From Bacteroidota bacterium (GTDB lineage: Bacteria > Bacteroidota > Bacteroidia > Bacteroidales > CAIXZF01), in the NCBI GenBank assembly GCA_037132075.1, contig JBAXPV010000007.1:1-64000 (forward strand): DNA of 64,000 nt, read 5' to 3'. The position numbers and the translations under genes were made by a program. Positions 102 through 15,936 of the stretch are shown piece by piece (within the stretch, counting starts at the first letter, position 1; each line of letters starts with the position of its first letter). The notes beneath the pieces were generated by a model. The model saw only the letters and a program-made list of their open reading frames with translations, was not told where the DNA came from and did not search any database.

Positions 102-1040
102 TTGACCTGGCTGGTGCGTTCCTGGGCAATCAGGAAAGCGGTACTTGATCATCCTAATGAGAGAAGCTCTCACACTATCGCAACACCACGAGGCGGAGGA
201 ATCGCGCTTGCAATCAGCTGGTTTATCGGACTTATTGTCTTGTTTTGGCAAAATGGGATTCCGTCACCATTGTTCTTTGCATTGCTCTGTGGATTGCCGG
301 TCTCGGTGATAGGACTCATAGATGATATGATGACGATCACACCCAAAATCCGACTTCTGATTCAATTGGCTGCCGCAACTGCGGCAATCATTTTTTTAGG
401 CGGAATGCAACAGTTGGATTTGGGGTTTATGATGATTTCAATTCCTTTGGTACTAAGTATTGCTGCGGTTGTCGGAATCGTTTGGTTTACCAATCTGTTT
501 AACTTTCTCGATGGGATCGATGGATATATCAGCCTGGAAGTTATCTTTATTGGCCTGGCTGTTTATTTCTTGTTTGGTGCAGCATTGCCCTTACTGATGG
601 CTGCTGCTACACTGGGATTTTTATTGTGGAACTGGCAGCCGGCAAAGATCTTTATGGGAGATGTTGGCAGTACTCTGTTGGGCTTTTCTGTTGCTGTTTT
701 GGGGATATATTATCAGAATGTTAATTTGGTTTCAATCCCTGTTACATTGATTCTGACATCGGTTTTTTGGTTTGACGCGACAGTGACATTGTTCAGACGA
801 ATGCTGAATAAAGAGAGTCTTCATCTGGCACACCGGAAACATGCCTATCAGCGGATTGTACAGGCAGGATTTAGTCACCAGAAAACAGTGATCTGGGCGT
901 TTGTGCTGAATCTTTTTGGGCTGGGATTGGTGCTGATCGCCAATAGATATGCAAATTATGGATGTTTGTTTTTGCTCCTGGATTTGCTGATGCTGATGCT
1001 AGTGATGAAGTTTGTTGATGGGAAGAAAGCGTTTCGGTAG
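102..1040 (+). CDS. UDP-HexNAc:undecaprenyl-phosphate HexNAc-1-phosphate transferase (glycosyltransferase family 4, MraY/WecA/WbpL-like)
   Basis: Polytopic membrane protein with the motifs DHPNERSSH...PRGGG and NLFNFLDGIDG typical of the MraY/WecA family. The track start is a TTG. The N-terminus is shorter than typical, so the start is uncertain. Confidence 0.8.
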   Translation: MTWLVRSWAIRKAVLDHPNERSSHTIATPRGGGIALAISWFIGLIVLFWQNGIPSPLFFALLCGLPVSVIGLIDDMMTITPKIRLLIQLAAATAAIIFLGGMQQLDLGFMMISIPLVLSIAAVVGIVWFTNLFNFLDGIDGYISLEVIFIGLAVYFLFGAALPLLMAAATLGFLLWNWQPAKIFMGDVGSTLLGFSVAVLGIYYQNVNLVSIPVTLILTSVFWFDATVTLFRRMLNKESLHLAHRKHAYQRIVQAGFSHQKTVIWAFVLNLFGLGLVLIANRYANYGCLFLLLDLLMLMLVMKFVDGKKAFR

Positions 1041-1042
1041 CT

Positions 1043-1294
1043 GAGCACGAAACCGGATATGAGAGAACATGCTGTACTTATTCCAGACGACCTGTAAAAC
1101 TTGTTTTCCATGAAGTGTTTCCTGACCCAAAACAAGCAATTTCCTGGGAAAAACAAATCAAAGGTTGGTCAAGAAATAAGAAAAAAGCTTTGATTGATGG
1201 GGATTATGCCAAATTGCAAGAGTTTGCCATGTGTCTTAATGTTACTTCACAGATGCAGCATGGCATATATGCGCATCGGCACATTTGTAAATAA
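1043..1294 (+). pseudogene. N-terminally truncated GIY-YIG nuclease-family remnant
   Basis: This frame translates to ...YSRRPVKLVFHEVFPDPKQAISWEKQIKGWSRNKKKALIDGDY.... That matches the conserved C-terminal half of Bacteroidota GIY-YIG family proteins (RRPVKLVY..E.F......A...EKQIKGWSR.KK.ALI). There is no start codon or GIY-YIG N-terminal motif. It abuts the stop of the upstream gene and is not in the ORF track. Confidence 0.5.
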
Positions 1295-1421
1295 TTAAAC
1301 AATTTAAGTATGTTTCTTCTTGTGTGTTGATTTGATTTTGTTTACGTTTGTGGGAAAGTTAGTTCCTGTAGAAAAATTGCTTCGGTAGATATGTCTCCAT
1401 TGATATAATTTTAAAGTAATA

Positions 1422-3377
1422 ATGAAAAAGCGGTTTTACGATTTTGTTTCCGGCAGATATATGCCACGATGGCTGGTCCTGGTCTTCGACCTGAGCGTTG
1501 CGCTCATCACATTTTACATGGCTTATTTGTTGCGCTTCAACCTGGATATTATAGCAGCTGACAATGCCATTAACCTCGATGTATGGCTGCTGATCACCCC
1601 GGTATTTCTTTGTAGTTTCCTGATCATCAGGCCCTTTGCAGGTATCCTGAGACATAGTACAACCAGTGACGTGGTGAAAATCATCATCGCCATCAGTGCC
1701 GGGTCAATGTTTATTTTTACCGCCTCATTCCTGTCCAGGAGTTTTACACTTCCCCTGGTTTTTAATATTCCTTTGTCAGTGGTCATTATCCACTATGCCC
1801 TGGCGAACCTCGTGCTTGTAGCCTCGAGGCTGATCATCAAAACAGTTTTCCTGGATTATATGATGGAGAGACAGCGTCATAAGGACTTACACCAGGTGAT
1901 GATTTATGGCGCAGGTCAATTGGGACAAATTGCACGGGATGTTATGCTGGCTGATAGCATGACGCAGATAAACCTGGTGGGTTTTATCGACGACAATACT
2001 TTTTTGCAAGGGAAGCGATTGGGAGATATCCCTGTATATTCTCCTGAGAAAGCCTTTGGTAAAATTATTGATCAGTATAAAGTCAATGAGATCATCCTGG
2101 CGATCAGCAAGGATAAGATCAGCATGAAACGGAAGCGTGCGTTTATTGACCTCTGCCTGCAGCATAGCCTGGCGATCAAGGAAATCCCGCCTGTGCATAG
2201 CTGGATTAACGGGGAATTAAATCTGAAAATGATCCGTAAGGTTCGGATTGATGATCTTCTGGAGAGAGATGCGATAAAGTTAGATGTAAATAATATTCGT
2301 GAAGGGCTTCAGGAGTCGACGATACTTGTCACGGGTGGTGCCGGCTCTATCGGCTCAGAGATCGTGCGGCAATTGCTGGCTTTTCATGCAAAAAGAGTGA
2401 TATTGCTCGACCAGGCTGAGACACCGCTGTATGATATCAGGAATGAGATTTTAAGCAATCATCCCGACGCTCAGGTTGACCTGGTGATTGCCGACGTATC
2501 GAATCAGAATCGGCTTCGATCGGTGTTTGAGAAATTCAGGCCGGATATCGTCTTTAATGCCGCTGCCTACAAGCATGTCCCCATGATGGAAGATCATCCG
2601 TATGAGGCCATTAATATCAACGTACGGGGCACGAAATACCTGGCTGACCTGGCTGTGGAATTCGGGGTGAAGAAATTTGTGATGATTTCGACAGACAAGG
2701 CGGTGAATCCAACCAATGTGATGGGAGCCTCGAAACGGATCTGTGAGATGTACATTCAGTCTCTGGTGCATCAGAATGGAATAAAGACTCAGTTTATCAC
2801 GACACGTTTTGGCAATGTGCTGGGATCAAATGGATCAGTGGTGCCTATGTTTAAGAAACAGATCGAAGAAGGCGGGCCGATTACGGTCACGCATCCCAAG
2901 ATCACCCGTTATTTCATGACGATCCCAGAGGCTTGTCAGCTCGTCCTGGAAGCTGGCTTTATGGGCAAAGGCGGTGAGATTTACCTCTTCGACATGGGTG
3001 AGCCGGTTGTGATCTATGAGATGGCCAAGAAAATGATCAGGCTATCAGGGCTTACCTACAAAAAGGATATTGATATTGTATTCACCGGATTACGCCCGGG
3101 AGAGAAGTTATACGAAGAACTCCTGGCGACTGCAGAAGATACCCTCCCGACGCACAATGAGAAAATCATGATCAGCAATGTCGTGGTTCACGAATATGAC
3201 AAGGTGAATGCACAGATCACAGCGATGCTCGAAGCCCTGGATCAGGAGACTGACGAAGCGCTTGTAAGCAGGATGAAAGAGATCGTCCCGGAATATGTGT
3301 CGGAGAACTCGAGGTTTTGTTCTCTGGATGGGAAGGGTTTGGAGTTAGGAGTTAGTGGGGGGGCGCCTAAATTCTAA
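1422..3377 (+). CDS. Polysaccharide biosynthesis protein, membrane-anchored UDP-sugar 4,6-dehydratase (CapD/PglF/WbpM family)
   Basis: N-terminal TM segments are followed by a second Rossmann fold and an SDR domain (TGGAGSIGSE, YKH active-site region, GSNGSV). This is classic CapD/WbpM architecture. Confidence 0.85.
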   Translation: MKKRFYDFVSGRYMPRWLVLVFDLSVALITFYMAYLLRFNLDIIAADNAINLDVWLLITPVFLCSFLIIRPFAGILRHSTTSDVVKIIIAISAGSMFIFTASFLSRSFTLPLVFNIPLSVVIIHYALANLVLVASRLIIKTVFLDYMMERQRHKDLHQVMIYGAGQLGQIARDVMLADSMTQINLVGFIDDNTFLQGKRLGDIPVYSPEKAFGKIIDQYKVNEIILAISKDKISMKRKRAFIDLCLQHSLAIKEIPPVHSWINGELNLKMIRKVRIDDLLERDAIKLDVNNIREGLQESTILVTGGAGSIGSEIVRQLLAFHAKRVILLDQAETPLYDIRNEILSNHPDAQVDLVIADVSNQNRLRSVFEKFRPDIVFNAAAYKHVPMMEDHPYEAININVRGTKYLADLAVEFGVKKFVMISTDKAVNPTNVMGASKRICEMYIQSLVHQNGIKTQFITTRFGNVLGSNGSVVPMFKKQIEEGGPITVTHPKITRYFMTIPEACQLVLEAGFMGKGGEIYLFDMGEPVVIYEMAKKMIRLSGLTYKKDIDIVFTGLRPGEKLYEELLATAEDTLPTHNEKIMISNVVVHEYDKVNAQITAMLEALDQETDEALVSRMKEIVPEYVSENSRFCSLDGKGLELGVSGGAPKF

Positions 3378-3461
3378 TCACAGTGAAGAAGGTTCTGGGG
3401 GCAAATAAAATCCCTCATCAGATTTACGAGTTCCCAAACGTCTAAGGTTTTTATAAATCCC

Positions 3462-3534
3462 TGCGCCCTTGTGCCTTTGCGAGAAAGAAAAACATCTCAC
3501 GCAGAGGCGCAAGGACGCATGGAGTTTTTATTTT
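3462..3534 (+). terminator. Putative rho-independent terminator (imperfect long hairpin plus T-tract) downstream of the dehydratase gene
   Basis: Imperfect inverted repeat tgcgcccttgtgcctttgcgag / cacgcagaggcgcaaggacgca, followed by TTTTTATTTT. Confidence 0.4.
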
Positions 3535-3602
3535 AGGATAGTTTTCTCAAGATAGGGAATTAGTTTCCCGGCGACATCTTTAAAATCCTAACAATTTGTA
3601 AT

Positions 3603-5207
3603 TTGGTCCTTGTGAAAATTTCTGATGACAGTCGGGTAAATACTTTTGAAAGCTTTATAAATCAAGGCAATTCCTTATTTAAGGATCAAGCTCTTTGTAT
3701 AGGTTCTGCAAGCGATGTGATTTTAAGTTATCGTCAATGCCTTGATTTAATTAAACGTGCTTCAGCAAAGCTTTCGGAAGCGGGAATTATGAAAGGAGAT
3801 AAGGTGCTTAGTTATACACCTTTGTCTTTAGAGTCTGTTTTATTGTGTTGGGCTTGTTTATATTGTGGCGTAATTTTCGTTCCGGTTGATCATAATTGGC
3901 CAAAGATCCTGCTTACATTAATATTAGATGAAACGTCTCCAAAACTAATCCTAACAGATTCTGTTCGGATTAATAATGTTCAAAGGAAGGAGATTAATCC
4001 CAAGATTTTGCTTGTGCAAGCTGAGATTTTAGGCAATAGTCCTCTTTTTCTAGAGTGGATTGGAAATGAAACCGAAGCTGATGTTATGCCTCAAGCAATA
4101 GTTGAAAGCAATGATCTTGCAGTAATCCTATATACTTCCGGGTCAACAGGAATTCCTAAAGGTGTTATGTTATCACAAGAGGCATTGCTTAATAGTGGAG
4201 CCTTGTTTGCAGCGCATTTTGGGTGGGTGCGTGGAGACATTTTTCTAAACCTGGGTGACTTACATTCCATGAGTGGATTTAGGAATACTTGTTTGGCGCC
4301 TGTACATGCAGGCGCTTCTTTTATCATTGCCACTGAGACAGAAAGAAATAATGTGTTGTCTGTTCAGGATTTGGTGGAAAAATTCAGGGTTCATTATCTT
4401 GGTGTTGCCCCGACAATGGTTCGCCAGATGAACATTGTCTATTCCGAATCCAGGAAAAATAAACTATCATCGATAAAAGCGATACTTTGTACCGGAGGAA
4501 TGCTTGCTAAAGATCAGCTTACAGCATTCTATGAGCAATATGAAAAGCCAATATTGAATTATTACGGTTTGACAGAAACAGCTGGTATTTGTTTGGGGCA
4601 AAAGGTTGACTCCTTTAATCCACATGACAACAGTATTGGAATAGCAATTGGATGCGAACTTAAAATATTGACAGATCCTGAAATGAATAGTGACAATGAC
4701 TTTGGAGAATTGTTGGTTAAAAGTGATCAGTTAATGCGTGGGTATTATGGTAAAGAATTGGAAACAGATGAAGTATTGAAAGAGGGCTGGTTTTATAGTG
4801 GTGATATTGTGCAAAAAAGGGAGGATGGCTATTATGAGCTCCGGGGAAGGTCGCGCAATATTATAAAAAGCATCAGTTCTGAGTTGATTTATCTGGAGGA
4901 AGTTGAGCTCGCAATAGAAGCGATCCCTTTTGTTAGCGAGTGCTGTTGCTGTAGTTTTGCTCAAAATGAAGAAGATGAGAAAATGATCGCCTTTGTCGTA
5001 ATACAGGATGATTTGGAATTAACTTTACAAGAACTTACAAATAGAATTAGATTAGCTTTAACAGAGAAATTAGGCAAAAACAGATTGCCCTGGTGTTATT
5101 ATTATATAGATAGTTTCCCACGGAATAGCAGTGGTAAGATACTGAGACCAGAACTAAAAGAAATTTTAAATGGATTTATTGAATCACATCGGAAAGGATA
5201 TTTTTAA
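3603..5207 (+). CDS. ANL-superfamily adenylate-forming enzyme (AMP-dependent synthetase/ligase), first of two
   Basis: AMP-binding core motifs LYTSGSTGIPKGV, YGLTETAG and GDIV..R.DGYYELRGRS. The start is uncertain: the track start is TTG and the first in-frame ATG is far downstream. Confidence 0.8.
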   Translation: MVLVKISDDSRVNTFESFINQGNSLFKDQALCIGSASDVILSYRQCLDLIKRASAKLSEAGIMKGDKVLSYTPLSLESVLLCWACLYCGVIFVPVDHNWPKILLTLILDETSPKLILTDSVRINNVQRKEINPKILLVQAEILGNSPLFLEWIGNETEADVMPQAIVESNDLAVILYTSGSTGIPKGVMLSQEALLNSGALFAAHFGWVRGDIFLNLGDLHSMSGFRNTCLAPVHAGASFIIATETERNNVLSVQDLVEKFRVHYLGVAPTMVRQMNIVYSESRKNKLSSIKAILCTGGMLAKDQLTAFYEQYEKPILNYYGLTETAGICLGQKVDSFNPHDNSIGIAIGCELKILTDPEMNSDNDFGELLVKSDQLMRGYYGKELETDEVLKEGWFYSGDIVQKREDGYYELRGRSRNIIKSISSELIYLEEVELAIEAIPFVSECCCCSFAQNEEDEKMIAFVVIQDDLELTLQELTNRIRLALTEKLGKNRLPWCYYYIDSFPRNSSGKILRPELKEILNGFIESHRKGYF

Positions 5208-7005
5208 TGAGGCATTTCATCAAAAGGGAAACAAGATTTTTGTCGATTTTGGTGATCGGAAATTAAGCTATGGCGCATTTAGAACTGAGCTTAGAAAATA
5301 TACCACATATTTCAGGAACGAGGGTCTTACAGCAGGACAAAGAGTTGTAATCTCCTCAAGAGATGAATATTTTATATGTTGTTTTTATCTTTCTTTGATT
5401 GCCAACGGCATAACAGTCATCCTGCTTGACCCAGACAGCGGGACTGAGCGGGCCAAGGCAATCGTGAATCATACCAAGGCATCCTTTCTTTTTTTGGATG
5501 CAGAGATTCAGGAGTTATGGGAAATTCCTGTTGATCAAGACATCCGAGTGATTCCTATTCAGCAGGCCACAGCTGCTAATGTATTTCGGAAGTTATTGCA
5601 GAAGGGAAAATCTCAAAATATATTATTCCCGCAATGTGTCGAAAGGCTTGCCGAATCTGACTTTATCCCTCCGGAGGATCCCGAATCAGACGCGTATATT
5701 TTGTATACGTCAGGAACAACATCTGCACCAAAAGGAGTCCGTATTTCATACAGGGCCTTGTTGTCACACCTGGACAGCCTTTCCCGGGTTTACCAGATGG
5801 ATCATGACTCAAAGATCTTCAACAACCTGATACTCTCGCATGCTGATGGAATTGTCCAGGGTCCTTTGCTGGCATTGTACAATGCAGGGACATTATACCG
5901 GCCTTTCCCATTTTCCATTCAAAATATTGAAGATGCATTCGATATAATATATCGTGAGAAGATAAATTATTGGATAATGGTTCCAACGATGATGGCTTTG
6001 ATATACCAGTTCAAAAAGGACGATAAGGATTGCCTGGATCAAGCAGGTTTTCGAAATGTTATTTCCTGTGGTGCAAAATTGGATGCTGTTTTATGGAAAC
6101 AGTTTGGGGAGAAATTTAACACCAGGATCATTAACGTTTATGGATTAACTGAAACGGTAACCGGTGGAATATATGCAGGACATGATGATAAATCAAATAT
6201 AATTGGAAGTATTGGGAATGCTGTTGATTGTGACATCAGAATATCAGGTATTCACGATGAAGAAATGGGCATTAACGAGACCGGAGAACTATGGATACGT
6301 GGCAGTTTGCTGATGAGCGGATACCTGGATGCTCCTGAAGCCAACCAGGAGGTTTTTGAGGGAGCATGGCTAAAAACCGGGGATATTGGTTACCTGGGTG
6401 AGGATGGGTGTTACAGATTGACAGGGCGGAAGAAGCTAATCATCATCTCGGGTGGCGTTAATATTTTTCCGGAAGAGGTAAGCGAGATTATCCGTACACA
6501 TCCTGCAGTCCAGGATGCAGTGACTTTTGGCATTGAGGACGGGATTTGGGGAGAAATTGTTGCCGCAGCATTGGTTATCAGGGAAAACATAAAGCTTAGT
6601 AATGAAGAAATTGTAGCGTTTTGCCGGGAACATATGGAGGAACAGAAGGTACCTTCCAGGGTCTATTTCCTGGAGGCCCTGCCTTATGGAAGATCCGGCA
6701 AAGTACAAATGCAATTGCTAAGAGAAAAAGTACTTCAAACGGCTGACAATGGGGTTTCCGAGGCTGAGCCAGTTCAGACATTTCTGCAAATTGTTTCCAA
6801 AATTCTTCAATTGCCGCTACACGATCTCAATATGGATCTGCGGTTTGACAACAGTCGTGCCTGGGATTCTATTTCGCACCTTATGTTGGTTGTAGCCATG
6901 GAAAAACACTATCAAATCGAATTTACAGCCCTTGAAGTGATGAACGTTAAAAGCCTTGCTGATTTGTTTTCAATTATAAAAGGAAAGCAGTTTGAAGCAA
7001 ACTGA
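5170..7005 (+). CDS. ANL adenylate-forming enzyme fused to a C-terminal acyl/peptidyl carrier protein (PP-binding) domain
   Basis: Motifs ILYTSGTTSAPKGV, YGLTETV and a LPYGRSGKV C-terminal lysine region. An extra ~80 aa C-terminal domain follows, with a phosphopantetheine-attachment-like motif RAWDSISHL(M)L...A.E..Y.IEF. The gene overlaps the upstream gene by 38 nt. Confidence 0.8.
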   Translation: MDLLNHIGKDIFNEAFHQKGNKIFVDFGDRKLSYGAFRTELRKYTTYFRNEGLTAGQRVVISSRDEYFICCFYLSLIANGITVILLDPDSGTERAKAIVNHTKASFLFLDAEIQELWEIPVDQDIRVIPIQQATAANVFRKLLQKGKSQNILFPQCVERLAESDFIPPEDPESDAYILYTSGTTSAPKGVRISYRALLSHLDSLSRVYQMDHDSKIFNNLILSHADGIVQGPLLALYNAGTLYRPFPFSIQNIEDAFDIIYREKINYWIMVPTMMALIYQFKKDDKDCLDQAGFRNVISCGAKLDAVLWKQFGEKFNTRIINVYGLTETVTGGIYAGHDDKSNIIGSIGNAVDCDIRISGIHDEEMGINETGELWIRGSLLMSGYLDAPEANQEVFEGAWLKTGDIGYLGEDGCYRLTGRKKLIIISGGVNIFPEEVSEIIRTHPAVQDAVTFGIEDGIWGEIVAAALVIRENIKLSNEEIVAFCREHMEEQKVPSRVYFLEALPYGRSGKVQMQLLREKVLQTADNGVSEAEPVQTFLQIVSKILQLPLHDLNMDLRFDNSRAWDSISHLMLVVAMEKHYQIEFTALEVMNVKSLADLFSIIKGKQFEAN

Positions 7006-7912
7006 ACAAAAGACCGGAATGCCGCTCTTTCTGTGGCTGGTAAGCGTACTCGTTGCAACAGGATTTCTTGTTTCTGCTTTTTTTTTACTTCAGTTCCGCG
7101 ACAAAGAATTAGGTATAAAAGGTGTGCAAAATGTCACTGTAACTCAATACACTAATGCCGGAAATGACAGTCTGGACGGGTATTTCCTTGGGACTTCCCT
7201 GACAAGTTGCGCCTTAATTCAATATAGAGCCCTGGATAGCCTGATTCGCATTCGGAAAGAAAAATTCAGGTATAAGTTTTTAATCGCACCTGGAGCGACC
7301 CTTAAAGATTATAATTACACAATTGATGAAATCAGAAGGTTGAGACCCAAATGTCTTTTTATAGAATCAAATACCGCATGTGTAGATATGAGTGGGCAGG
7401 ACTCATGGAGTATGATCAATTTTAGGATCAGGATGGCCAGGGTTCCGGTTTATTTATTTGGGATGGGTTTTAATGCGTTGCATCTGTTTAAAAGTTATGT
7501 TCCGGCCGATTTTGCTGAACGGCATCGAAAAAAAATCTATTTGGATGAACAGAATCTATTAGACGACTTTGAAGTTGGGAAACGCTTCAGGGTAAGAGAT
7601 CCCGGGGAATTCCCTCTTTGGGAGAATTTTTTTAAGGAAGCAGGAAGTTTGGGGATTAAAATTTATTTTCTTGATTTGCCCCGTTCCATGGAAGCGGAGC
7701 ATGGCCTGCCACGAAAATTTTCCGAAAAATTTAAAACCCATATTGCAACATATAATAAACAGTATCATATAGAATATATTCATTTCCCAATCCCTTTGAG
7801 AAGGGAAGCTTACTTCATTGACCGGGCTCATTTTAACAGATCGGGAAGTAAAATATACAGCATGTGGTTGACCCACGAATTCGAAACCAGGAAAATAATA
7901 ACAAGGAGATAA
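6992..7912 (+). CDS. Membrane-anchored SGNH-like protein, putative DltD/AlgX/AlgJ-type acyltransfer partner of the MBOAT
   Basis: N-terminal TM helix. There is a GNDSLDG block (resembles SGNH block I GDSxx) and a C-terminal FIDRAHFN block (DxxH, SGNH block V). It sits immediately upstream of, and translationally coupled to, the MBOAT gene. The functional call is inferential. Confidence 0.5.
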   Translation: MKQTEQKTGMPLFLWLVSVLVATGFLVSAFFLLQFRDKELGIKGVQNVTVTQYTNAGNDSLDGYFLGTSLTSCALIQYRALDSLIRIRKEKFRYKFLIAPGATLKDYNYTIDEIRRLRPKCLFIESNTACVDMSGQDSWSMINFRIRMARVPVYLFGMGFNALHLFKSYVPADFAERHRKKIYLDEQNLLDDFEVGKRFRVRDPGEFPLWENFFKEAGSLGIKIYFLDLPRSMEAEHGLPRKFSEKFKTHIATYNKQYHIEYIHFPIPLRREAYFIDRAHFNRSGSKIYSMWLTHEFETRKIITRR

Positions 7913-9021
7913 TGGATTTTGTTTCTTACATATATTTAGCTTGGATTCTATTGTTTGCAGGGTTTGCATGGATTCCTTCATACAAATATAGTCCGTATGT
8001 TTTTGCAGTTTTTGGGATTGTTTTTATTATGATCGCATCCCCGATTTCGGCTGCGGTATTGCTTGCTGAATCCACGCTGGCTTTCGTTGTTGCCCGAAGA
8101 CATTCTCTTTCACATTGGAGCAGTACTTTTATCAGTGTTTTGTTTGTCTTTTCAGCTTTTCTTTTGTGTAAGTACTTTGCATTAAAAGGGATGTTTGCAT
8201 TACCAATTGGAATTTCCTATTTTACTTTCAGGCTGATACATTATCTCCAGGAAGCCTACAGGCAAAAGCTCAGACAACATACGTTTCCGGAGTTTATGGC
8301 TTATATGACCTTCTTCCCGACTTTCCTGGTAGGGCCGATCAATCTGTTCCCGGATTTTTTAGTCAATTTGCGCAGACGGAAATGGGATAGCCACGAATTC
8401 TCCCGGGGACTGGAAAGGCTTGTCTATGGCTACGCCCAGTTGATAATCATCGGGAATTATTTGCTTAATTATTTATTAAAGGCCTGGGTCAACACGAACC
8501 TGCAAAATACAGGAACGATGACGACTTTGGTCATTCATTCTGTTCAACTTTGGCTCGATTTGTATATTCGCTTTTCTGCTTATAGTAGTATTGCCATTGG
8601 GATCGCTGCAATGGCGGGTTTCAGCGTACCGGAAAATTTTCGTTATCCATTTCTGGCAAGCAACATCCGTGATTTCTGGCAACGATGGCATATGTCACTG
8701 ACAAATTGGTGCAGAGATTATATATTCATACCGCTTGCTTCCCACAGCAGAAACGCATTTCTTGCCATCGTTGCCACGATGATCACAATAGGCGTTTGGC
8801 ATGAATTGAGTTTTCGTTATATATTGTGGGGCATTTATCATGCTCTTGGGATTATATTCTATGAGAATTATGCACGTTTTACAAAGGGGAGATTTCCGGA
8901 TCGTAAAAGATTAACGATGATTAGAAAGGCTGTTGGAATGATTATAACGCTTGTTTTTGTGATTATGAGTTTCCCGCTTACGACAATAATTAACGATTAT
9001 ATAATGAGTTTTGTACGATGA
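7912..9021 (+). CDS. MBOAT-family membrane-bound O-acyltransferase (DltB/AlgI/PatA-like)
   Basis: Polytopic protein with the MBOAT signature region FWQRWHMSLTNWCRDYIFIPL (invariant His) and the C-terminal GVWHELSFRYILWGIYHALG (W-H-G / WG..HG motif). The start is chosen at ATG 7912, which overlaps the upstream stop. The track ORF starts at 7864. Confidence 0.8.
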   Translation: MDFVSYIYLAWILLFAGFAWIPSYKYSPYVFAVFGIVFIMIASPISAAVLLAESTLAFVVARRHSLSHWSSTFISVLFVFSAFLLCKYFALKGMFALPIGISYFTFRLIHYLQEAYRQKLRQHTFPEFMAYMTFFPTFLVGPINLFPDFLVNLRRRKWDSHEFSRGLERLVYGYAQLIIIGNYLLNYLLKAWVNTNLQNTGTMTTLVIHSVQLWLDLYIRFSAYSSIAIGIAAMAGFSVPENFRYPFLASNIRDFWQRWHMSLTNWCRDYIFIPLASHSRNAFLAIVATMITIGVWHELSFRYILWGIYHALGIIFYENYARFTKGRFPDRKRLTMIRKAVGMIITLVFVIMSFPLTTIINDYIMSFVR

Positions 9022-9123
9022 TGAATTTGAATTATTTTATCGTTACTCATGGTTTTGGACGGTCGTCCTTCGATTCCGCTCAGGATGGCTAAGGCAAACC
9101 TAATTGAAAAAAAATAAAAAAAT

Positions 9124-9267
9124 ATGACTTATCATTTTTTATGCAAGCTTTTCAATTCAAAAATAGCTGCCTGGATTACTGTTTTATGGTTTGCTTTTTT
9201 ATTCATTGCGATGTTTGCCTTGTCGGCATATCGTGAAGATGCTTTTCTATATCTCAATTTTAAATAG
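9124..9267 (+). CDS. Small hydrophobic ORF (47 aa, MTYHFLCKLFNSKIAAWITVLWFAFLFIAMFALSAYREDAFLYLNFK) immediately upstream of the radical SAM gene. It is a candidate precursor peptide or small membrane protein.
   Basis: Uninterrupted ATG-initiated ORF ending 7 nt before the radical SAM start. It is absent from the track only because it is under 60 aa. No homology-based support is available. Confidence 0.25.
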   Translation: MTYHFLCKLFNSKIAAWITVLWFAFLFIAMFALSAYREDAFLYLNFK

Positions 9268-9273
9268 GTATTA

Positions 9274-10230
9274 ATGGATGAAAAAGTCAGAAAACTGAAT
9301 CAGTCAGAACTTCCCTCTTTTCTGAAGAGCCGCGAGGGATGGGGGAAGCTGTTTGAGATGAAACGTTCGCCCTACCCGCATCTGCATCAGATTGAACCTA
9401 CCAATGTATGTCCATATCATTGTATCATGTGTCCCAGGGGCAATGAAATGACTCGTAAGACCGGACATATGGATTTTGCAGTTTTCAGCAAAGTCATTGA
9501 GGAAGTGGCTACTTATCCTGACGAGATTAAGAGGAAAGAGATCGAATTATTTCATTTCGGGGAATCCCTGATTCATCCGCTAATAGCCGAAATGAATGAA
9601 TATGCTTCATCAAAAGGATTAAAAACTTTGCTTTCAGTGAATGCCATTGAATTGAATCAGGAAATTGCGCACAAATTGATTTCCGGTAAGGCAGGGAAAA
9701 TTATTGTTTCACTTGATGGTTTTGATGCCAAAAGTTTTCAGGAGATCCGTGGTCGTAAGATTGATTATGATCAGGCGATTGAAAATATAGTACAGGCGGA
9801 TTCTTTGATAAAATCAATGAAAGCCACGACAAGACTTACTGTCAGGATGATTGCATTGAATCAGAATATGCATATGACGGAGTTCTTTAAGGATTTTTGG
9901 TCATCGAAAAATATTGAGGTAGAGATACGGCCATTTTTTCCCTGGGGTGAAAAAGAGATGGTAAAATTGGGGGTTTATGAAAAATATCCTCCTTTCATGC
10001 CATGTCCTTTTGCCTGGCAATACCTTGTGGTGCAATGGAATGGTGATGTTGTGGCTTGTTGTCGTGATTATAATGCAGAAAACCTCATGGGCAATGTTAA
10101 AGACGAGACGCTCCTTCAAATCTGGAATGGAGAAAAATACGCCAAATTCAGGAGCAGTATGATTGCTGGCGAATACGGGAATTCTATTTGTGGCCCGTGT
10201 ATGGCGCTTTACTATACTGAAGAAAGTTAG
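9274..10230 (+). CDS. Radical SAM enzyme with a C-terminal SPASM/twitch-like auxiliary Fe-S domain
   Basis: Canonical CxxxCxxC motif (CPYHCIMC) near the N-terminus. C-terminal cysteine pattern C-x12-G-x4-C-C ... CGPC with a GNV..ETLLQIWN block, as seen in SPASM/twitch maturases. Confidence 0.8.
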   Translation: MDEKVRKLNQSELPSFLKSREGWGKLFEMKRSPYPHLHQIEPTNVCPYHCIMCPRGNEMTRKTGHMDFAVFSKVIEEVATYPDEIKRKEIELFHFGESLIHPLIAEMNEYASSKGLKTLLSVNAIELNQEIAHKLISGKAGKIIVSLDGFDAKSFQEIRGRKIDYDQAIENIVQADSLIKSMKATTRLTVRMIALNQNMHMTEFFKDFWSSKNIEVEIRPFFPWGEKEMVKLGVYEKYPPFMPCPFAWQYLVVQWNGDVVACCRDYNAENLMGNVKDETLLQIWNGEKYAKFRSSMIAGEYGNSICGPCMALYYTEES

Positions 10231-10260
10231 CCCTTAGGTGGGCCTTATGGTTTCGCCCAG

Positions 10261-11607
10261 TCACCCAGTCGCCTGGTCCCCCATTCCCCCAGTCGCCTTG
10301 TCGTCCTTTTTAGAGATCAATTTAAGCAAGTAACCCGACAACAAGCCACCCGTACTCTCATCCCCCTGCACGAGGAAGTCAGGCGTGACCTTGATCTGGC
10401 CCATGGCGATTTGTTTGGCGATTTCGATTGCGGTGACGCCTTGCTGGCCGATGGATTTGTTCTGGAGTTCGTAGGCTTTGGCGGTAGACTCGCCGATCGC
10501 GAGGATCTTTGATCCTTCAGCATTCCCGATGGCGATGATTCCTTTGGCTTCACCTTCTGCACGGATCCTTGTGCTCTCAGCTTCGCCTTCTGCGAAGCGT
10601 ATGGTTTTGAGCTTTGTCTGCTCGGCTATCTTAACCCCGATTTCTGCTTCCATGAGGATCTTCTGGAGTTCTGCTTCGGAACGTGTCTTTTCTGTGGCAA
10701 TCCTTGTCTGTTCTGCTTTCTGTTGCTCCTGGTACATGGCCATTTGCTGCTGGGCGATGATTTTTTTCGTCTGGGTATCCATGAGTTCCTGGGGCAGGAC
10801 GATCTGGCAGATGAGGACAGAGACACATTCAACATGGTATTTCTCGAGTTCGAGGCGGGTCCGTTCTTCGGCTTTACGTTGTTCTTCCTGCCGATCCTGG
10901 AGGAAGTTCATGGCAGACGTAGAAGAGGCCTGGTTGCGGAAGCTGGAGTCGATCATGGGGTGGATGACGTGGTTGATGAGGTTGTCGATGGAGCCGATTT
11001 TGGCCACCATATACGGTGCCTGGTCGGGTCTGACACGGATGATGACTTTGACGGAGACGCTGATCTCGAAGCCGTCGCGTGAAACGACTTTGAGCTGATC
11101 GAATTTCGTTTCCTGCGCATCGTCCCAGTCGATGGTGATGTTGGTGGTATCGACGATATAGATGATGAAAGCCCTTCGGTTGATATAATAGATCCCCGGG
11201 CCTGCGACTTCTTTCTGGATGCCACGGTAGCCTTTGGGCACGACATAGCGTTCGATGCCGTATTTCAGACGTTGCTCGGCTTCTGAAAGTGTGGTTGTAT
11301 CGGAAGCTTGCGGTGGTGCTCCGACCATGTCTTTGTCGAGGTTTGCGATGATATGCTGGGGTTCTTCTCCAACGTTTGAGATGACGACAGCAACCTGGCC
11401 TCTTTCCACGACGGCGACTTCATCGAGCTCAGTCTTGAACATCAAAGGGTTGACGTAATAGGTTCCGGGTTTCAGAACATCGAACTGGGGACCGCGCTGG
11501 CCACCGTTTTCGAGGAATTTCGAGACATTTTGAAAGTCGTTGTGGTTGGGTACTGACTTGGCAACATATTCTGTTTCCGGCAGGGGTTCTCCGTCGAGTG
11601 CTGTCAC
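10261..11607 (-). CDS. Flotillin-like SPFH/band-7 protein, C-terminal fragment (YqiK family). It is the downstream part of a frameshift-split gene.
   Basis: SPFH domain plus a long EA-rich coiled coil (AEGEAESTRIRAEGEAKG...). The N-terminus carries the third copy of the repeat motif KIGLVTALDGEPL...FLENGGQRGPQ..LKPGTYYVNP, found twice in the upstream ORF. Confidence 0.7.
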   Translation of the reverse strand: MTALDGEPLPETEYVAKSVPNHNDFQNVSKFLENGGQRGPQFDVLKPGTYYVNPLMFKTELDEVAVVERGQVAVVISNVGEEPQHIIANLDKDMVGAPPQASDTTTLSEAEQRLKYGIERYVVPKGYRGIQKEVAGPGIYYINRRAFIIYIVDTTNITIDWDDAQETKFDQLKVVSRDGFEISVSVKVIIRVRPDQAPYMVAKIGSIDNLINHVIHPMIDSSFRNQASSTSAMNFLQDRQEEQRKAEERTRLELEKYHVECVSVLICQIVLPQELMDTQTKKIIAQQQMAMYQEQQKAEQTRIATEKTRSEAELQKILMEAEIGVKIAEQTKLKTIRFAEGEAESTRIRAEGEAKGIIAIGNAEGSKILAIGESTAKAYELQNKSIGQQGVTAIEIAKQIAMGQIKVTPDFLVQGDESTGGLLSGYLLKLISKKDDKATGGMGDQATG

Positions 11608-12326
11608 AAGACCGATTTTCTGTGAAGGGATGACTGTGGCTTCTTTGATCTCAACCCTGAAGAGTCGAGGTTGATACGGTAGGTACCGGGGAGTAAGATC
11701 TGAGACTGGGGCCCTTTTTGGCCGCCATTTTTCAAGAAAGACTCACCACTTTCGAAGTTATTATGACCTTCGACAAATTTCGAAAGCAGGCGGCCGGGTT
11801 GGATCGGATCGCCATCCATCGAAGTAACCAGTCCGATCTGCCCTTTGTCGATGACGACTGAGGGCATTTTTTTTACCATGAACAGAATTGGGTTTATCCT
11901 GAAGAATCCAGGAGGCAGGATGCTGATCTGAGGTCCTTTTTCCCCGCCATTCTGAATGAAGGCTTCGCCATCCTGGAAGGAGTTATGGTTTTCTATGACT
12001 TTGGCAAAGATTTTTCCGGGAGGAACCGGGCTGCCATCGATAGATTCGACGATTCCGACTTCGTTTTCAGAGATGACGGTGAATTCGAGTTTGCGGGCTT
12101 TGTAGATAAAGGGGACAAGCAGATGTAGTCCTGGTCCGAGGGTACGTGCCTGGACTCCCATTTCGTTTTTCATGGCGATGACACGACCCTGGGGCATTTT
12201 GGTGCCGAACCAACGGCGTTCGAGAACAGCGATGCCACGACCGCCAACGATGACAATGGTGTTAAGGATGACGACGACGACGAGCAGCAGTATTACTGCT
12301 AAGATGATTAAGTTAAGGGGTAGCAT
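11604..12326 (-). CDS. Flotillin-like protein, N-terminal fragment (TM helix plus two YqiK-type repeats). It is the upstream part of the frameshift-split gene.
   Basis: N-terminal TM helix, then two copies of the motif G.VES.DG.P..PG......V..HN.F..GE.F..NGG.KGPQ...LPPG..RINP. Reading across about 11667-11672 in the -1 frame joins seamlessly to the downstream ORF. Confidence 0.7.
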   Translation of the reverse strand: MLPLNLIILAVILLLVVVVILNTIVIVGGRGIAVLERRWFGTKMPQGRVIAMKNEMGVQARTLGPGLHLLVPFIYKARKLEFTVISENEVGIVESIDGSPVPPGKIFAKVIENHNSFQDGEAFIQNGGEKGPQISILPPGFFRINPILFMVKKMPSVVIDKGQIGLVTSMDGDPIQPGRLLSKFVEGHNNFESGESFLKNGGQKGPQSQILLPGTYRINLDSSGLRSKKPQSSLHRKSVL

Positions 12327-12588: not shown

Positions 12589-15500
12589 ATGCATAGGATT
12601 TATATAATTATCCTGTTTTTGTTACAATTTTTTTCCCTGAAGGCTCAGCCACCACCCTGTGTTGCGAATCCTTTGGCAGATGATTTTTGTGCCTCGGCTA
12701 CTGCAATCTGCAACCTGAATGGCTATTGCGGGAATACAAGTGCAACCTATACGAACACTGTCAGCCCGACAAATCTTACAAATGAGACGAATACGCCACT
12801 GGGTGCGGTATTTTGTGCTACGATTCAAAACAACTCCTGGCTGAAATTCATTGCGGATTCCACTACGGCCATTTTTGACGTCTGGTGTAGCAATTGTGCG
12901 CACAACCACGGGATACAGATGCAGATTTATAAGACAACGAATTGTTACAACTTTACGTCTGTCTCGAACTGTTGGAATCCCGGGTATCCGACGAATGGTC
13001 AGATTATTGCCACAGGACTAATTGTTGGTAGTGTCTATTATTTCATGATTGACGGCACTGCCGGTGATAATTGTGATTATGTCATTGCCTGTAGCGTTGG
13101 TGTTAATGCGGCTCCTGCAGTTTCTCTGAATCAAAATATTTGTGAAGGCATGACAGCAACAGTAGCCGCCACGGGTGGTCTGACGTATTTTTGGACTGCG
13201 AATCCTCCGGATCCTGCAGTGACAGCACAGCAGACCCAGGCAGTTGTCACTGTAACGCCTTCTGTGACAACAGTATATACAGTCATTGTTAACAATCCCG
13301 GGCTGAATACTTTTTGTGCTACTGACACAACGATTTTAAGTACCATCATCACTGTAAATAATGTTGCAGGCCAGATCAGCAATGTCACCGCGGCTCATTG
13401 TAATCTGAACAACGGTGCCATCACTGTTGCAGGTACAGGCGGAACCGGAACGTATGCTTACCTGTGGAACACTACGCCGGCACAAAGCACGCCTACCATT
13501 GCGGGATTGGCACCGGGCTCATATACCGTGACGGTTAGTAGCGGGGGGTGCAACAAAACAGTTACTGCGATAGTGCCGATGATTCCGGCACCTGTGGCAT
13601 CGGTGGCTTCTTTTTCTGATGCACATTGTAACCAGGCCGATGGTAGTGCTGTCGTCCAGATCAATGGCGGCAGCGCTCCATTTACCTATGTATGGAGCAG
13701 TGTCCCTGTTCAGAATACCAATCACCTGCAAAATGTTATCGCAGGGACGTATACGCTTACCGTCACCGACCAGGAGAACTGTACGTCAAATCTCACTGTC
13801 ACCCTGGCCAATGTGCCTGGCCCAACAGTCGCTTTAGCCACGATTACGCCGGTATGTATCAATGGCGGCACCATCAATCTTTCAGGAGGGACTCCGGTCG
13901 GAGGGACTTACAGCGGACCAGGTGTTCTTGGTAGTATTTTTGATCCTGTGGTTGTGGGCGCTGGAACCTACAACATCACCTATGCCTATACGGATGCTTT
14001 CGGCTGTAGCGGATCTGCCATGAAAACGCTGCAGGTGCTTGCATTGCCTGTGCTTAGCTTTCTTACATTAACTTCAGCCTGTGTTGATGCTCCTGTCATT
14101 ACCCTCACTATGGCAACACCTTCAGGAGGTACCTATTCAGGTACAGGTGTTAGTGCCGGTGTCTTTAACCCTGCCACTGCCGGTGCCGGAATTCATATTC
14201 TACTTTATACATTTACAGGCCCAAATGGCTGTACCAATGAGATAACACAGAGCATCACCGTAAATGCGTTACCTATAGTTTCTTTAAGTCCGATACCGGG
14301 AACCTGTATCAATGCGCCCCCACAGGCGCTTGCAGGCGGAACGCCTGTGGGGGGAACTTATTCCGGGACAGGTGTGTCAGGCGGGATGTTTAGTCCTGCA
14401 AGTTCCGGATTGGGAACTTTTACGATAACCTATGTCTATAAGGATGGCAATCTATGTATCAGCTCTGCACAGCAGACGATTTTAGTGTCTCCAACCCCGA
14501 ATGTGACCTTCAATACGATCCCGAACATTTGTTTGAATGCCGGGGTCACCCCGATGCAGGGGGGGAGCCCTGTTGGTGGCATCTACTCAGGTGTGGGAGT
14601 CAACAATAATCTCTTTAGTCCTGCAGTCACAGGGACAGGCACTTTCCAGGTCTTTTATAATTATTCTGTTTTGGGATGTGTTGGTGCTGACACGCAGACG
14701 ATCACTGTGTTGCCAATCCCGACAGCATCATTTCCTGCAGTAGGGGAGTTATGCGTCGATGCGGCCCCGATCACGCTCAGCGGGGGATTGCCTTCGGGAG
14801 GAACTTATGTAGGGACGGGAGTAAACGGCACGAGCTTTGATCCTGCCACAAGCGGAGCCGGCACTTTTAGTCTGGGCTATGCCTGGTCAGCCGCCAATGG
14901 CTGCACGGATACTGCCTTTCAGCCTATGTTGGTGCGCCCTTTGCCGGTGATTACCTATACGCCTATTGCGGGGCGATGTATCAGTGACAGTCCGTTTGGA
15001 TTTTCTGAAGCGACGCCAACGGGCGGGACCTATAGCGGGACGGGTATCGTGAATGGTATTTTCGACCCTGCTGCTGCCGGTGTAGGTACTTATTCCATCC
15101 TGTATACCTATACTGATCCTTTTGGATGTACAAACAATGCTTCCCGGGATCTCACCATAAATCCGCTGCCACTTCAGGTGCCTTTGAGCGGAGGTGGTGT
15201 CATTTGCGATGGCATTGGAGGGATGCCTGTGGGTTTGGATAGTTCTCAACCGGGGATCAATTATTATTTGATCGTGAATGGCTGGGTAACGTTACAGGCT
15301 TATCCGGGCACGGGTGCAGCCCTCAGCTTTGGCAACCAGAGTGCGCAAGGCAATTATATTGTGAAAGCGGTGGACTCAATCACAGGATGTGTGAATATGA
15401 TTCTGGATACGGTTCATATCAAGCTGTTGCCAAAACCGGTGGTGAACCTGGGTTTGCCGATGTATCTGTGTGATTTGCCACAGATCGTTCTGGATGGCGG

Positions 15501-15936
15501 GACTTACCTCGACAGTGTCACTTATGAATGGCCGGATGGCAGCACGAACAGGTATTTCAACGTATTTGAGCCGGGTAACTATTGGGTTAAGGTATATATG
15601 GGGAATTGTGTGAGTGAAGACAATATTGACATCATGGATTGCAGTTTGCTTGAGTTACCCAATATTTTCACTCCGAACGGCGATGGAAAGAATGAGCGTT
15701 TTAAGCCAAAGAAGACGGGAGAAATCGTGGAATACCAGATAGAGATCTTCAACCGCTGGGGAAATATGGTTTATCAATCGGATAAACTTGAAGAGGGCTG
15801 GGATGGCCGGACAGACAGCAATGGTGCGGATTGCCCTGACGGGGTTTACTTTTTTGTTGCAAGGTATGTTGCGCATATCTTTCCGCAGCCTGACACACAG
15901 CGGAAGCTGACTGGGACGGTTACGCTGATGCGGTAG
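12589..15936 (+). CDS. Large T9SS-secreted cell-surface adhesin (SprB-repeat / Ig-like repeat protein) with a type-B T9SS C-terminal domain (gliding-motility-associated CTD)
   Basis: Signal peptide. SprB-type repeats (AHCNLNNGAITV..GGTG.Y.YLW). Six ~75-aa tandem units (C..AP....GG.P.GGTYSG.GV....F.P...G.GT..I.Y.Y.D..GC). C-terminal LPNIFTPNGDGKNERFKP motif of the CHU_C/T9SS type-B domain. Confidence 0.85.
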   Translation: MHRIYIIILFLLQFFSLKAQPPPCVANPLADDFCASATAICNLNGYCGNTSATYTNTVSPTNLTNETNTPLGAVFCATIQNNSWLKFIADSTTAIFDVWCSNCAHNHGIQMQIYKTTNCYNFTSVSNCWNPGYPTNGQIIATGLIVGSVYYFMIDGTAGDNCDYVIACSVGVNAAPAVSLNQNICEGMTATVAATGGLTYFWTANPPDPAVTAQQTQAVVTVTPSVTTVYTVIVNNPGLNTFCATDTTILSTIITVNNVAGQISNVTAAHCNLNNGAITVAGTGGTGTYAYLWNTTPAQSTPTIAGLAPGSYTVTVSSGGCNKTVTAIVPMIPAPVASVASFSDAHCNQADGSAVVQINGGSAPFTYVWSSVPVQNTNHLQNVIAGTYTLTVTDQENCTSNLTVTLANVPGPTVALATITPVCINGGTINLSGGTPVGGTYSGPGVLGSIFDPVVVGAGTYNITYAYTDAFGCSGSAMKTLQVLALPVLSFLTLTSACVDAPVITLTMATPSGGTYSGTGVSAGVFNPATAGAGIHILLYTFTGPNGCTNEITQSITVNALPIVSLSPIPGTCINAPPQALAGGTPVGGTYSGTGVSGGMFSPASSGLGTFTITYVYKDGNLCISSAQQTILVSPTPNVTFNTIPNICLNAGVTPMQGGSPVGGIYSGVGVNNNLFSPAVTGTGTFQVFYNYSVLGCVGADTQTITVLPIPTASFPAVGELCVDAAPITLSGGLPSGGTYVGTGVNGTSFDPATSGAGTFSLGYAWSAANGCTDTAFQPMLVRPLPVITYTPIAGRCISDSPFGFSEATPTGGTYSGTGIVNGIFDPAAAGVGTYSILYTYTDPFGCTNNASRDLTINPLPLQVPLSGGGVICDGIGGMPVGLDSSQPGINYYLIVNGWVTLQAYPGTGAALSFGNQSAQGNYIVKAVDSITGCVNMILDTVHIKLLPKPVVNLGLPMYLCDLPQIVLDGGTYLDSVTYEWPDGSTNRYFNVFEPGNYWVKVYMGNCVSEDNIDIMDCSLLELPNIFTPNGDGKNERFKPKKTGEIVEYQIEIFNRWGNMVYQSDKLEEGWDGRTDSNGADCPDGVYFFVARYVAHIFPQPDTQRKLTGTVTLMR
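13820..15175 (+). repeat. Six in-frame tandem ~225-nt coding repeats (Ig-like/PKD-like units) inside the adhesin gene
   Basis: Repeated peptide pattern LP..S.....C.....I.L.GG.P.GGTYSGTGV....F.P...G.GT......Y......GC... visible in the translation. Confidence 0.6.

Follow-up and report, generated by a model that had tools for sequence, protein, structure and literature searches.

A six-gene cassette from a Bacteroidota bacterium that combines a twitch radical SAM enzyme with a predicted Dlt-like acyl-transfer machinery

We describe a six-gene cassette found in a 64,000-nt stretch of genomic DNA from a Bacteroidota bacterium (contig JBAXPV010000007.1, positions 1 to 64,000 of the forward strand; this whole stretch is called the window below). 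The cassette ends with a gene for a microprotein of 47 amino acids (aa) and a gene for a radical S-adenosylmethionine (SAM) enzyme of 318 aa, to which we refer as the rSAM. With a probability that we put at about 0.6, the six genes make up an acylation cassette on the plan of the Dlt pathway with a different chemistry, in which the microprotein would serve as an acyl shuttle and the rSAM would tailor the acyl unit. The four genes upstream of the microprotein and rSAM genes share their strand and overlap or abut at their ends, and positions 3603-10230 form a single operon-like, self-contained unit:

3603..5207, + strand: AMP1, stand-alone ANL (acyl-CoA-synthetase-like) adenylating enzyme, 534 aa (Pfam AMP-binding, E 1.4e-61)
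5170..7005, + strand: AMP2-PCP, ANL adenylating enzyme with a fused phosphopantetheine carrier, 611 aa (Pfam AMP-binding, AMP-binding_C, PP-binding)
6992..7912, + strand: SGNH-fold protein by predicted structure and invariant residues, membrane-anchored, 306 aa, with a putative DltD-like role
7912..9021, + strand: short MBOAT, probably of DltB type, 369 aa (Pfam MBOAT, E 3e-23)
9124..9267, + strand: candidate DltX-like acyl-shuttle microprotein, 47 aa (basic N-terminus, one transmembrane helix, FLYLNF(K), invariant Tyr43)
9274..10230, + strand: BtrN-like putative 'twitch' radical SAM enzyme, 318 aa (Pfam Radical_SAM, SPASM)

The last two open reading frames (ORFs) had been singled out in an initial annotation made from the sequence. 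Both are present where they had been placed and encode products of the lengths given then: 9124-9267 (+) yields the 47-aa sequence MTYHFLCKLFNSKIAAWITVLWFAFLFIAMFALSAYREDAFLYLNFK and 9274-10230 (+) yields the 318-aa rSAM. The two ORFs are indeed close together, though the distance from the stop codon of the first to the ATG of the second is six bases (9268-9273) and not the 7 nt reported. The small ORF had been described as unannotated; it has neither a name nor a Pfam family, but it is called by the gene callers behind the public records, and an identical 47-aa protein is present in the NCBI, JGI and ENA collections. Because the ratio of nonsynonymous to synonymous substitution rates (dN/dS) among close relatives is 0.04-0.05, with synonymous sites near saturation, the small ORF is more than a chance reading frame and must be a translated gene under purifying selection.

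Conservation and gene orders of the cassette

Close homologues of the rSAM (46-74% identity) occur in many bacterial lineages, and we compared about 39 distinct loci carrying its relatives. An MBOAT gene is within reach in 30 of these loci; seven of the other nine are truncated where a contig ends or are very short. Around the rSAM, the two ligases, the 300-aa SGNH protein and the MBOAT recur in three different arrangements. The most common order is that of the window: ligase, ligase/carrier, SGNH, MBOAT, small ORF, rSAM. In the second order the rSAM comes first, followed by the series from ligase to small ORF, while in the third the same series lies on one strand and converges on an rSAM gene on the opposite strand. 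AMP1 adjoins AMP2-PCP in most related loci with enough flank. The flanks vary between loci (toxin-antitoxin, restriction-modification and transporter genes), and all-against-all clustering of the flanking ORFs found no seventh conserved gene. As a control we took 80 metagenomic MBOAT loci, found with the MBOAT alignment and encoding more distant MBOATs (28-40% identical); an rSAM of this kind is absent from all 80. We consider it highly probable that the rSAM belongs integrally to the cassette. One of the two proposals of the initial annotation, that the radical enzyme works on the sugar or acyl substituent which the neighbouring cassette installs, agrees in outline with this co-occurrence, the rSAM keeping its company in three gene orders and many lineages.

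The hosts are Bacteroidota, Pseudomonadota (including Mariprofundus), several deltaproteobacterial/Desulfobacterota lineages, Nitrospirota, Planctomycetota, Riflebacteria, Victivallales and Mesoterricola, all of them Gram-negative lineages or uncultured metagenome-assembled genomes (MAGs) and none labelled Firmicutes. One locus comes from the complete genome of an isolate, Desulfopila sp., and most others from uncultured lineages. The cassette is rare but phylogenetically widespread.

Two observations on individual loci are recorded here. In a Pseudomonadota MAG (L006:1-5793, JAZDGN010000135.1) a second radical SAM gene (447 aa, Zn_ribbon_HMPTM and Radical_SAM domains) and extra, apparently split AMP-binding ORFs lie upstream of the cassette, whose AMP2 gene also appears to be split into two ORFs. 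Four deltaproteobacterial loci of the rSAM-first order (L019, L022, L027 and L018) have in common a short, similar stretch of non-coding DNA ∼100 nt upstream of where the rSAM begins. It shows itself in pseudo-peptide strings that recur ('SSANF' is one) and could be a common promoter or leader, or no more than a sign of relatedness.

The microprotein and its MBOAT and SGNH partners

Whether the small ORF is conserved was examined by six-frame inspection and then with a profile hidden Markov model; all related loci that extend past the 3′ end of the MBOAT gene proved to have a homologue, 45-48 aa long. Among 21 aligned orthologues Tyr43 is the sole invariant residue (21/21), F41 and Y3 are each at least 90% conserved, and the C-terminus follows the pattern F-x-Y-x-x-[FLI], with N at the end in one subgroup (FIYWDN, IIYLDN). 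Each microprotein has a basic N-terminus and one hydrophobic stretch of ∼20 residues. The net charge, summed over the microproteins, comes to +36 for the N side and −19 for the C side, and from this bias we predict an N-in/C-out topology.

These features resemble those of DltX, a microprotein of <50 aa with an invariant tyrosine in a C-terminal FXYXXF 'acyl shuttle' motif; this tyrosine receives D-alanine from DltC via the MBOAT DltB and passes it to the SGNH protein DltD (PMC12148441). DltX of Bacillus thuringiensis shares this layout, with 11 + 22 + 15 residues, and ends in FIYNEF (PMC5541007). The traits by which a DltX would be recognized are found here in size, predicted topology, the FXYXXF-type motif and a gene placed together with those for a carrier, an SGNH protein and an MBOAT lacking the motif. 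A search of the microprotein profile against a database of 5.8 billion proteins returned 15 unnamed family members only, none with a Pfam domain, and against the PDB sequences it gave chance transmembrane matches only.

The other proposal of the initial annotation was that the small ORF and the rSAM form a RiPP-like pair (RiPP, ribosomally synthesized and post-translationally modified peptide), the 47-aa ORF being a precursor modified by the SPASM/twitch enzyme independently of the neighbouring genes. The adjacency is real: besides the six-base gap in the window, 19 of the examined loci have the two genes side by side on one strand. A precursor is expected to track its maturase, however, and an acyl shuttle its MBOAT, and it is the MBOAT that the small ORF tracks: whatever the position of the rSAM, the small ORF is always 140-310 nt away from the MBOAT gene's 3′ end. 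In five rSAM-first loci (L022, L027, L029, L034 and L038) it is 5.6-6.7 kb away from the rSAM and directly 3′ of the MBOAT gene, and in five convergent loci (L016, L017, L021, L037 and L040) it is on the strand opposite the rSAM; in one rearranged locus (L026) it comes after the SGNH gene. Upstream of the rSAM in the rSAM-first loci there is no further small ORF that is conserved. The co-occurrence expected of a precursor with its maturase thus turned out, across the ∼39 loci, to be a linkage to the MBOAT, and the RiPP reading is not supported; the gene order largely refutes it. The product is also of the wrong kind, a peptide with a transmembrane helix and a conserved tyrosine predicted outside and not a soluble leader with a core. 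Similar microproteins are, moreover, encoded in two loci, L048 and L049, where no rSAM is present in the available flank, which for L049 is only 1.25 kb.

The first of these two loci (L048:10001-14845, metagenome contig Ga0316204_10003210) contains, in this order, genes for an MBOAT, a 46-aa microprotein ending in FNYLVL, a 370-aa SGNH-like protein (motifs GSS ... DTVH), an ANL ligase and a GNAT protein, with no rSAM in 10 kb upstream or 4 kb downstream. Its neighbours include a relaxase, a weak NikA-like match and ArdA, surroundings which indicate that a trans-acting tyrosine-shuttle cassette also travels on a mobile element.

A second, independent line for a shuttle acting in trans comes, on sequence grounds, from the MBOAT itself. 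The best-scoring NCBIfam family of the window MBOAT is TIGR04091 (DltB); the match is co-linear over the whole length and scores 167 bits, below the cut-off of 375. Residues H260, H297 and H310 are invariant, and H297, in a 'WHExS' stretch, is a candidate for the universally conserved MBOAT histidine. The MBOATs of the cassette end ∼115 aa after the FWxRWH motif and carry no FxYxxF at the C-terminus. Most of the 80 distant MBOAT loci (L051-L127) show instead a near-fixed PF[IL]YF[RQ]F at the MBOAT C-terminus, and the 64 background MBOAT ORFs with a fused motif end ∼196 residues after FWxRWH, so that the cassette MBOATs are ∼80 C-terminal residues shorter than these relatives. Being short and free of the motif, as published for DltB versus PatA and AlgI, the cassette MBOAT appears to be of the DltB type and to need the motif in trans. 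Short MBOATs without a fused motif were also seen in three of the distant loci (L050, L064 and L118), and these may have trans partners that went undetected. The start of the window MBOAT gene is ambiguous: the longest ORF begins at GTG 7864 (385 aa), and ATG 7912 (369 aa), whose first base is the last base of the SGNH stop codon, is backed by the public gene calls and by all orthologues.

The 306-aa protein is, by its predicted fold, the SGNH partner of the MBOAT. The window copy has no Pfam match, and eight of the 23 family members match Lipase_GDSL_2. Gly67, Ser69, Asp277 and His280 are invariant, and the predicted structure resembles DltD and PatB; fold, block I serine, block V Asp-x-x-His and an N-terminal transmembrane anchor are all in place. 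The family profile found nothing significant among the PDB sequences, the fold resting on structure prediction.

The MBOAT and microprotein genes are separated in the window by a spacer of 102 nt (9022-9123). In Bacteroidota relatives (L004, L009-L011) the two genes abut, overlap or are at most ∼10 nt apart. The spacer has no Rfam match and folds no better than shuffled sequence (z −0.55).

The radical SAM enzyme and the acyl unit

The motifs reported for the rSAM hold: a core C46-x3-C50-x2-C53 (CPYHCIMC) and, toward the C-terminus, C244-x12-G257-x4-C262-C263 and C306-x2-C309 (CGPC). These eight cysteines, three in the core and five C-terminal, are invariant in the family. The family search suggested at the outset gave Pfam matches to Radical_SAM (residues 40-181, E 4e-12) and SPASM (residues 244-309, E 5e-16) and reached no NCBIfam equivalog, the best being a tungsten-cofactor maturase with 98.8 bits versus a cut-off of 380, over the N-terminal core only. 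A full SPASM domain is defined by seven cysteines, CX9-15GX4C ... CX2CX5CX3C ... C, that hold two auxiliary 4Fe-4S clusters. The rSAM has no CX2CX5CX3C, and its C-terminal cysteines C244, C262, C263, C306 and C309 are too few for two auxiliary clusters; the domain is thus not a full SPASM domain, and by its cysteine pattern the rSAM appears to be a 'twitch' enzyme of the BtrN type, with one auxiliary cluster.

BtrN, the 2-deoxy-scyllo-inosamine dehydrogenase of the butirosin pathway, is the founding twitch radical SAM enzyme. It is also, by a wide margin, the best solved relative found with the rSAM family profile (E 4e-22, in two co-linear stretches over its core and twitch domain). C244, C262, C306 and C309 align with the four cysteines of its twitch domain, which reportedly ligate the auxiliary cluster in the BtrN structure. 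The next matches, at E ∼1e-5, are TYW1, GDGT-MAS, BlsE, DesII and MoaA.

The enzyme itself also bears on the RiPP reading. Peptide maturases are numerous among SPASM/twitch enzymes, and SuiB, CteB, SkfB and ChlB are among the structural neighbours of the rSAM. On the other hand, the sequence profile run against solved proteins matched no RiPP maturase at E 0.01 or better, BtrN being closest by sequence. The part in front of the core is only ∼35 residues long (in the model the core begins near residue 36, behind a single helix) and leaves no room for a peptide-recognition domain. No RiPP recognition element (RRE) or PqqD-like domain was found (Pfam gives Radical_SAM and SPASM only), and the cassette has no conserved extra gene. 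Five C-terminal cysteines likewise do not suit a SPASM maturase. With an MBOAT-linked transmembrane peptide on one side and an enzyme lacking an RRE on the other, we consider the precursor/maturase pair barely credible. That the small ORF is instead a DltX-type shuttle of the MBOAT, and not a peptide substrate of the rSAM, seems to us highly probable.

The MBOAT would be served by the two ligases, both of which retain catalytic motifs (in AMP1 YTSGSTGIPKG, YGLTE and the C-terminal SSGK are intact). The best NCBIfam match of AMP1 is a long-chain-fatty-acid--CoA ligase (236 bits, below cut-off) and its closest PDB entry is 4-coumarate-CoA ligase; the closest PDB entries of AMP2-PCP are oxalate-CoA ligase (E 4e-49) and FadD13, not DltA. 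DltA is absent from the PDB matches inspected (the best 60 of 77 for AMP2-PCP and all 50 for AMP1), and the best PDB and NCBIfam relatives of the ligases are oxalate-, fatty-acid-, succinylbenzoate- and coumarate-CoA ligases. Since the ligases are not DltA-like, the acyl group is probably a carboxylic acid other than D-alanine. The carrier-serine motif W-D-S is present in 26 of the 28 related sequences listed, with WTS in L024 and IDS in L023, and by analogy AMP2-PCP would be the functional counterpart of DltA plus DltC.

One Nitrospirota locus bears on the module that the rSAM serves. In L015:8011-13386 (Nitrospirae MAG JAJYIF010000013.1) the rSAM has kept both ligases and the carrier domain beside it, and no gene for an MBOAT, an SGNH protein or a microprotein occurs within 9 kb. 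The gene immediately upstream of the rSAM encodes a 305-aa membrane protein with a weak, co-linear match to LpxL-type acyl-ACP acyltransferases (lipid A lauroyl acyltransferase; Pfam E 0.042, NCBIfam E 0.017). In this variant the acyl-carrier may supply a transferase of the LpxL type. An rSAM with ligases only in this locus, together with sets of the L048 type that have no rSAM in the flank, suggests that the rSAM belongs on the acyl-activation side. From this one locus and the co-occurrence we give even odds to an action of the rSAM on the acyl unit, as opposed to a peptide or an acceptor sugar.

The route that we propose has four steps. The two adenylating enzymes would activate one or two carboxylic acids and load the carrier fused to the second enzyme. 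The rSAM would then abstract a hydrogen atom from the acyl unit, free or bound to CoA or the carrier, and turn it into the exported form, its single, fully cysteine-ligated auxiliary cluster serving as in oxidation, elimination or decarboxylation of the BtrN/DesII/BlsE type; the co-occurrence and the closest relatives point to this step. Radical SAM enzymes require SAM and a reductant, and the rSAM should therefore be cytoplasmic, with no action on an exported polymer or on an outward-facing tyrosine. In the third step, suggested by the motif, the predicted topology, the gene linkage and the published DltX and PatA mechanism, the MBOAT would transfer the acyl group through the membrane to Tyr43 in the microprotein. 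Finally, the SGNH protein would take the acyl group from the tyrosine ester to an envelope polymer, in this Bacteroidota genome probably the polysaccharide of the adjoining locus.

That the cassette has such a neighbour gives weight to a different role for the rSAM, in which it would prepare the acceptor by cytoplasmic oxidation, deamination or decarboxylation of a nucleotide- or lipid-linked sugar that is acylated later. In four Bacteroidota loci the cassette is in or borders a polysaccharide locus; Glycos_transf_4 and Polysacc_synt_2 genes flank it in the Prolixibacteraceae and Bacteroidales loci L010, L011 and L028 as well as in the window, where the bordering genes are:

102..3377, + strand: initiating glycosyltransferase (Pfam Glycos_transf_4) and CapD/PglF-like dehydratase (Pfam Polysacc_synt_2) of the polysaccharide locus

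The closest solved sequence relatives, BtrN, BlsE and DesII, act on cyclitol or nucleotide sugars, and distant relatives of the rSAM occur in an rfb-type plasmid of Brachyspira. Yet most flanks outside the Bacteroidota are of the unrelated kinds named above, with no recurring sugar-pathway gene, no aminotransferase or reductase for a keto-sugar product is conserved in the cassette, and L015, which lacks the export module, still has the rSAM together with the ligases and carrier. We regard the preparation of the acceptor as unlikely. In the Brachyspira plasmid, pBHWA1 of B. hyodysenteriae (L129, NC_012226.1 1906-20844), an rfb/glycosyltransferase locus contains seven genes whose annotation reads 'radical SAM protein' or 'SPASM domain-containing protein'. 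Five of the seven are consecutive, and the matched one is ∼25% identical to the window rSAM. It suggests that sugar- or polysaccharide-linked twitch/SPASM enzymes are commoner than annotated.

A further possibility is that the rSAM modifies proteins of the pathway, for example the N-terminus of the microprotein (Tyr3) or the carrier domain, and so makes the shuttle competent. Y3 is well conserved and predicted to be cytoplasmic, twitch/SPASM enzymes often act on proteins (anSME), and the microprotein and rSAM genes are adjacent in the commonest gene order. The N-terminal M-x-Y-x-[LF], however, is also present in the microproteins of L048 and L049, which have no rSAM in the available flank; L015 keeps the rSAM without any microprotein, and DltX of Firmicutes functions without such an enzyme in the published pathway (PMC12148441). 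We find a protein target improbable, clearly more so than the acceptor sugar.

Returning to the reading of a Dlt-plan cassette with a shuttle and an rSAM-tailored acyl unit, a number of points weigh against it. L015 is a single locus with a weak LpxL match (E 0.02-0.04), and the co-occurrence fits an action of the rSAM on acyl donor, acceptor or pathway protein alike. In L045 the cassette is on a 5-kb contig with no rSAM downstream; this and the other distant SGNH-family members, L046 and L047, are on contigs too short to show presence or absence of the rSAM. The reading accounts neither for the need of two ligases nor for the extra invariant Cys263. Six microprotein orthologues do not match the DltX model in Pfam (PF12459/DUF3687) at E up to 10, and hhalign of the microprotein against B. 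thuringiensis DltX aligned 10 C-terminal columns only, with a probability of 1.7%. With no Pfam match and an alignment confined to the motif, the microprotein is DltX-like by motif, size, topology and genomic role and is not a demonstrated homologue.

Downstream of the cassette, two overlapping genes on the minus strand (10261-12326) converge on the rSAM and close the unit. One encodes a 448-aa SPFH/Band 7 protein and the other a 240-aa protein without a Pfam match, with internal repeats resembling the N-terminal part of its 448-aa neighbour. They are followed (12589-15936, + strand) by a gene for a surface protein of 1115 aa that carries SprB repeats as well as a type IX secretion signal (CHU_C), which fits the Bacteroidota origin. 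Positions 3000-10700 contain 18 terminator-like hairpins versus 6.6 ± 2.6 expected from shuffles; most are within coding sequence, and the excess is probably compositional.

Comparison with known systems

The closest parallel is the Dlt pathway of Firmicutes (DltX-DltA-DltB-DltC-DltD), which carries out D-alanylation of teichoic acids. Like it, the cassette has an adenylating enzyme and a phosphopantetheinyl carrier, a short MBOAT without a C-terminal tyrosine motif of its own, a membrane-anchored SGNH protein and a separate microprotein of ∼46-48 aa with a basic N-terminus, one transmembrane helix and a C-terminal FxYxxF-type motif. By analogy, the export half (MBOAT, trans tyrosine shuttle, SGNH protein and carrier) would work like Dlt. 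The differences are considerable. There are two adenylating enzymes, both acyl-CoA-synthetase-like and not DltA-like, and the carrier is fused to the second of them; the microprotein gene comes after the MBOAT gene, while dltX precedes dltA; the microprotein has no detectable homology to DltX and the MBOAT stays below the DltB equivalog cut-off; an rSAM is integral to the cassette, and the hosts are not Firmicutes.

The O-acetylation systems of Gram-negative bacteria, PatA/PatB, AlgI/AlgJ/AlgX and their relatives, share with the cassette an MBOAT and an SGNH transferase, and in MBOAT-SGNH systems of the PatA/AlgI type an acyl-tyrosine intermediate forms on an FxYxxF motif (PMC12148441). Unlike the cassette, they use acetyl-CoA as the donor and no carrier protein, have the motif fused to the MBOAT on ∼80 extra residues and lack an rSAM (found in 0 of the 80 control loci). 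MBOAT/SGNH pathways other than Dlt have been described as having no DltX-like microprotein (PMC12148441), and an older paper mentions DltX-like ORFs for a few enterobacteria only, within their dlt operons (PMC5541007).

Compared with BtrN, the rSAM has the same CX3CX2C core and a twitch domain C-x17-C ... C-x2-C whose cysteines align residue for residue, and neither enzyme has a peptide-recognition domain. It is, however, only ∼20% identical and longer (318 aa versus ∼270 residues in BtrN chains), with a conserved N-terminal extension of 35 residues, ∼80 extra residues between the two aligned stretches and the additional invariant Cys263, and its context is an acyl-transfer cassette instead of an aminoglycoside cluster. 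From the SPASM peptide maturases (anSME, SuiB, CteB, PqqE, SkfB) it differs in having one potential auxiliary cluster and no RRE, in the want of a profile match at E 0.01 or better and of a co-varying precursor gene.

Searches of the literature for radical SAM or SPASM together with MBOAT or DltB returned no relevant paper, and the combination of ligase type, second ligase, fused carrier, microprotein position, taxonomic range and rSAM matches no system in the searchable literature. It is conceivable, although we would put it somewhat short of even, that these loci represent an undescribed, widespread class of Gram-negative envelope acylation, a carrier-dependent MBOAT/tyrosine-shuttle/SGNH system of the Dlt type whose acyl group is made or tailored by a dedicated twitch rSAM, perhaps while the acyl substrate is tethered to the carrier. 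A tyrosine acyl shuttle acting in trans has been published as a peculiarity of Gram-positive Dlt; a functionally equivalent microprotein is predicted here in Gram-negative lineages, in a cassette that seems nearly always to include a BtrN-like rSAM. If the proposal is true, it would mean a radical-tailored acyl decoration of bacterial surface polymers and new radical SAM chemistry, and the six genes would offer a compact system for reconstituting the shuttle mechanism as well as the new rSAM reaction. For annotation, the lesson is that a small ORF next to a SPASM/twitch enzyme need not be a RiPP precursor, and that variation in gene order between genomes can decide the matter.

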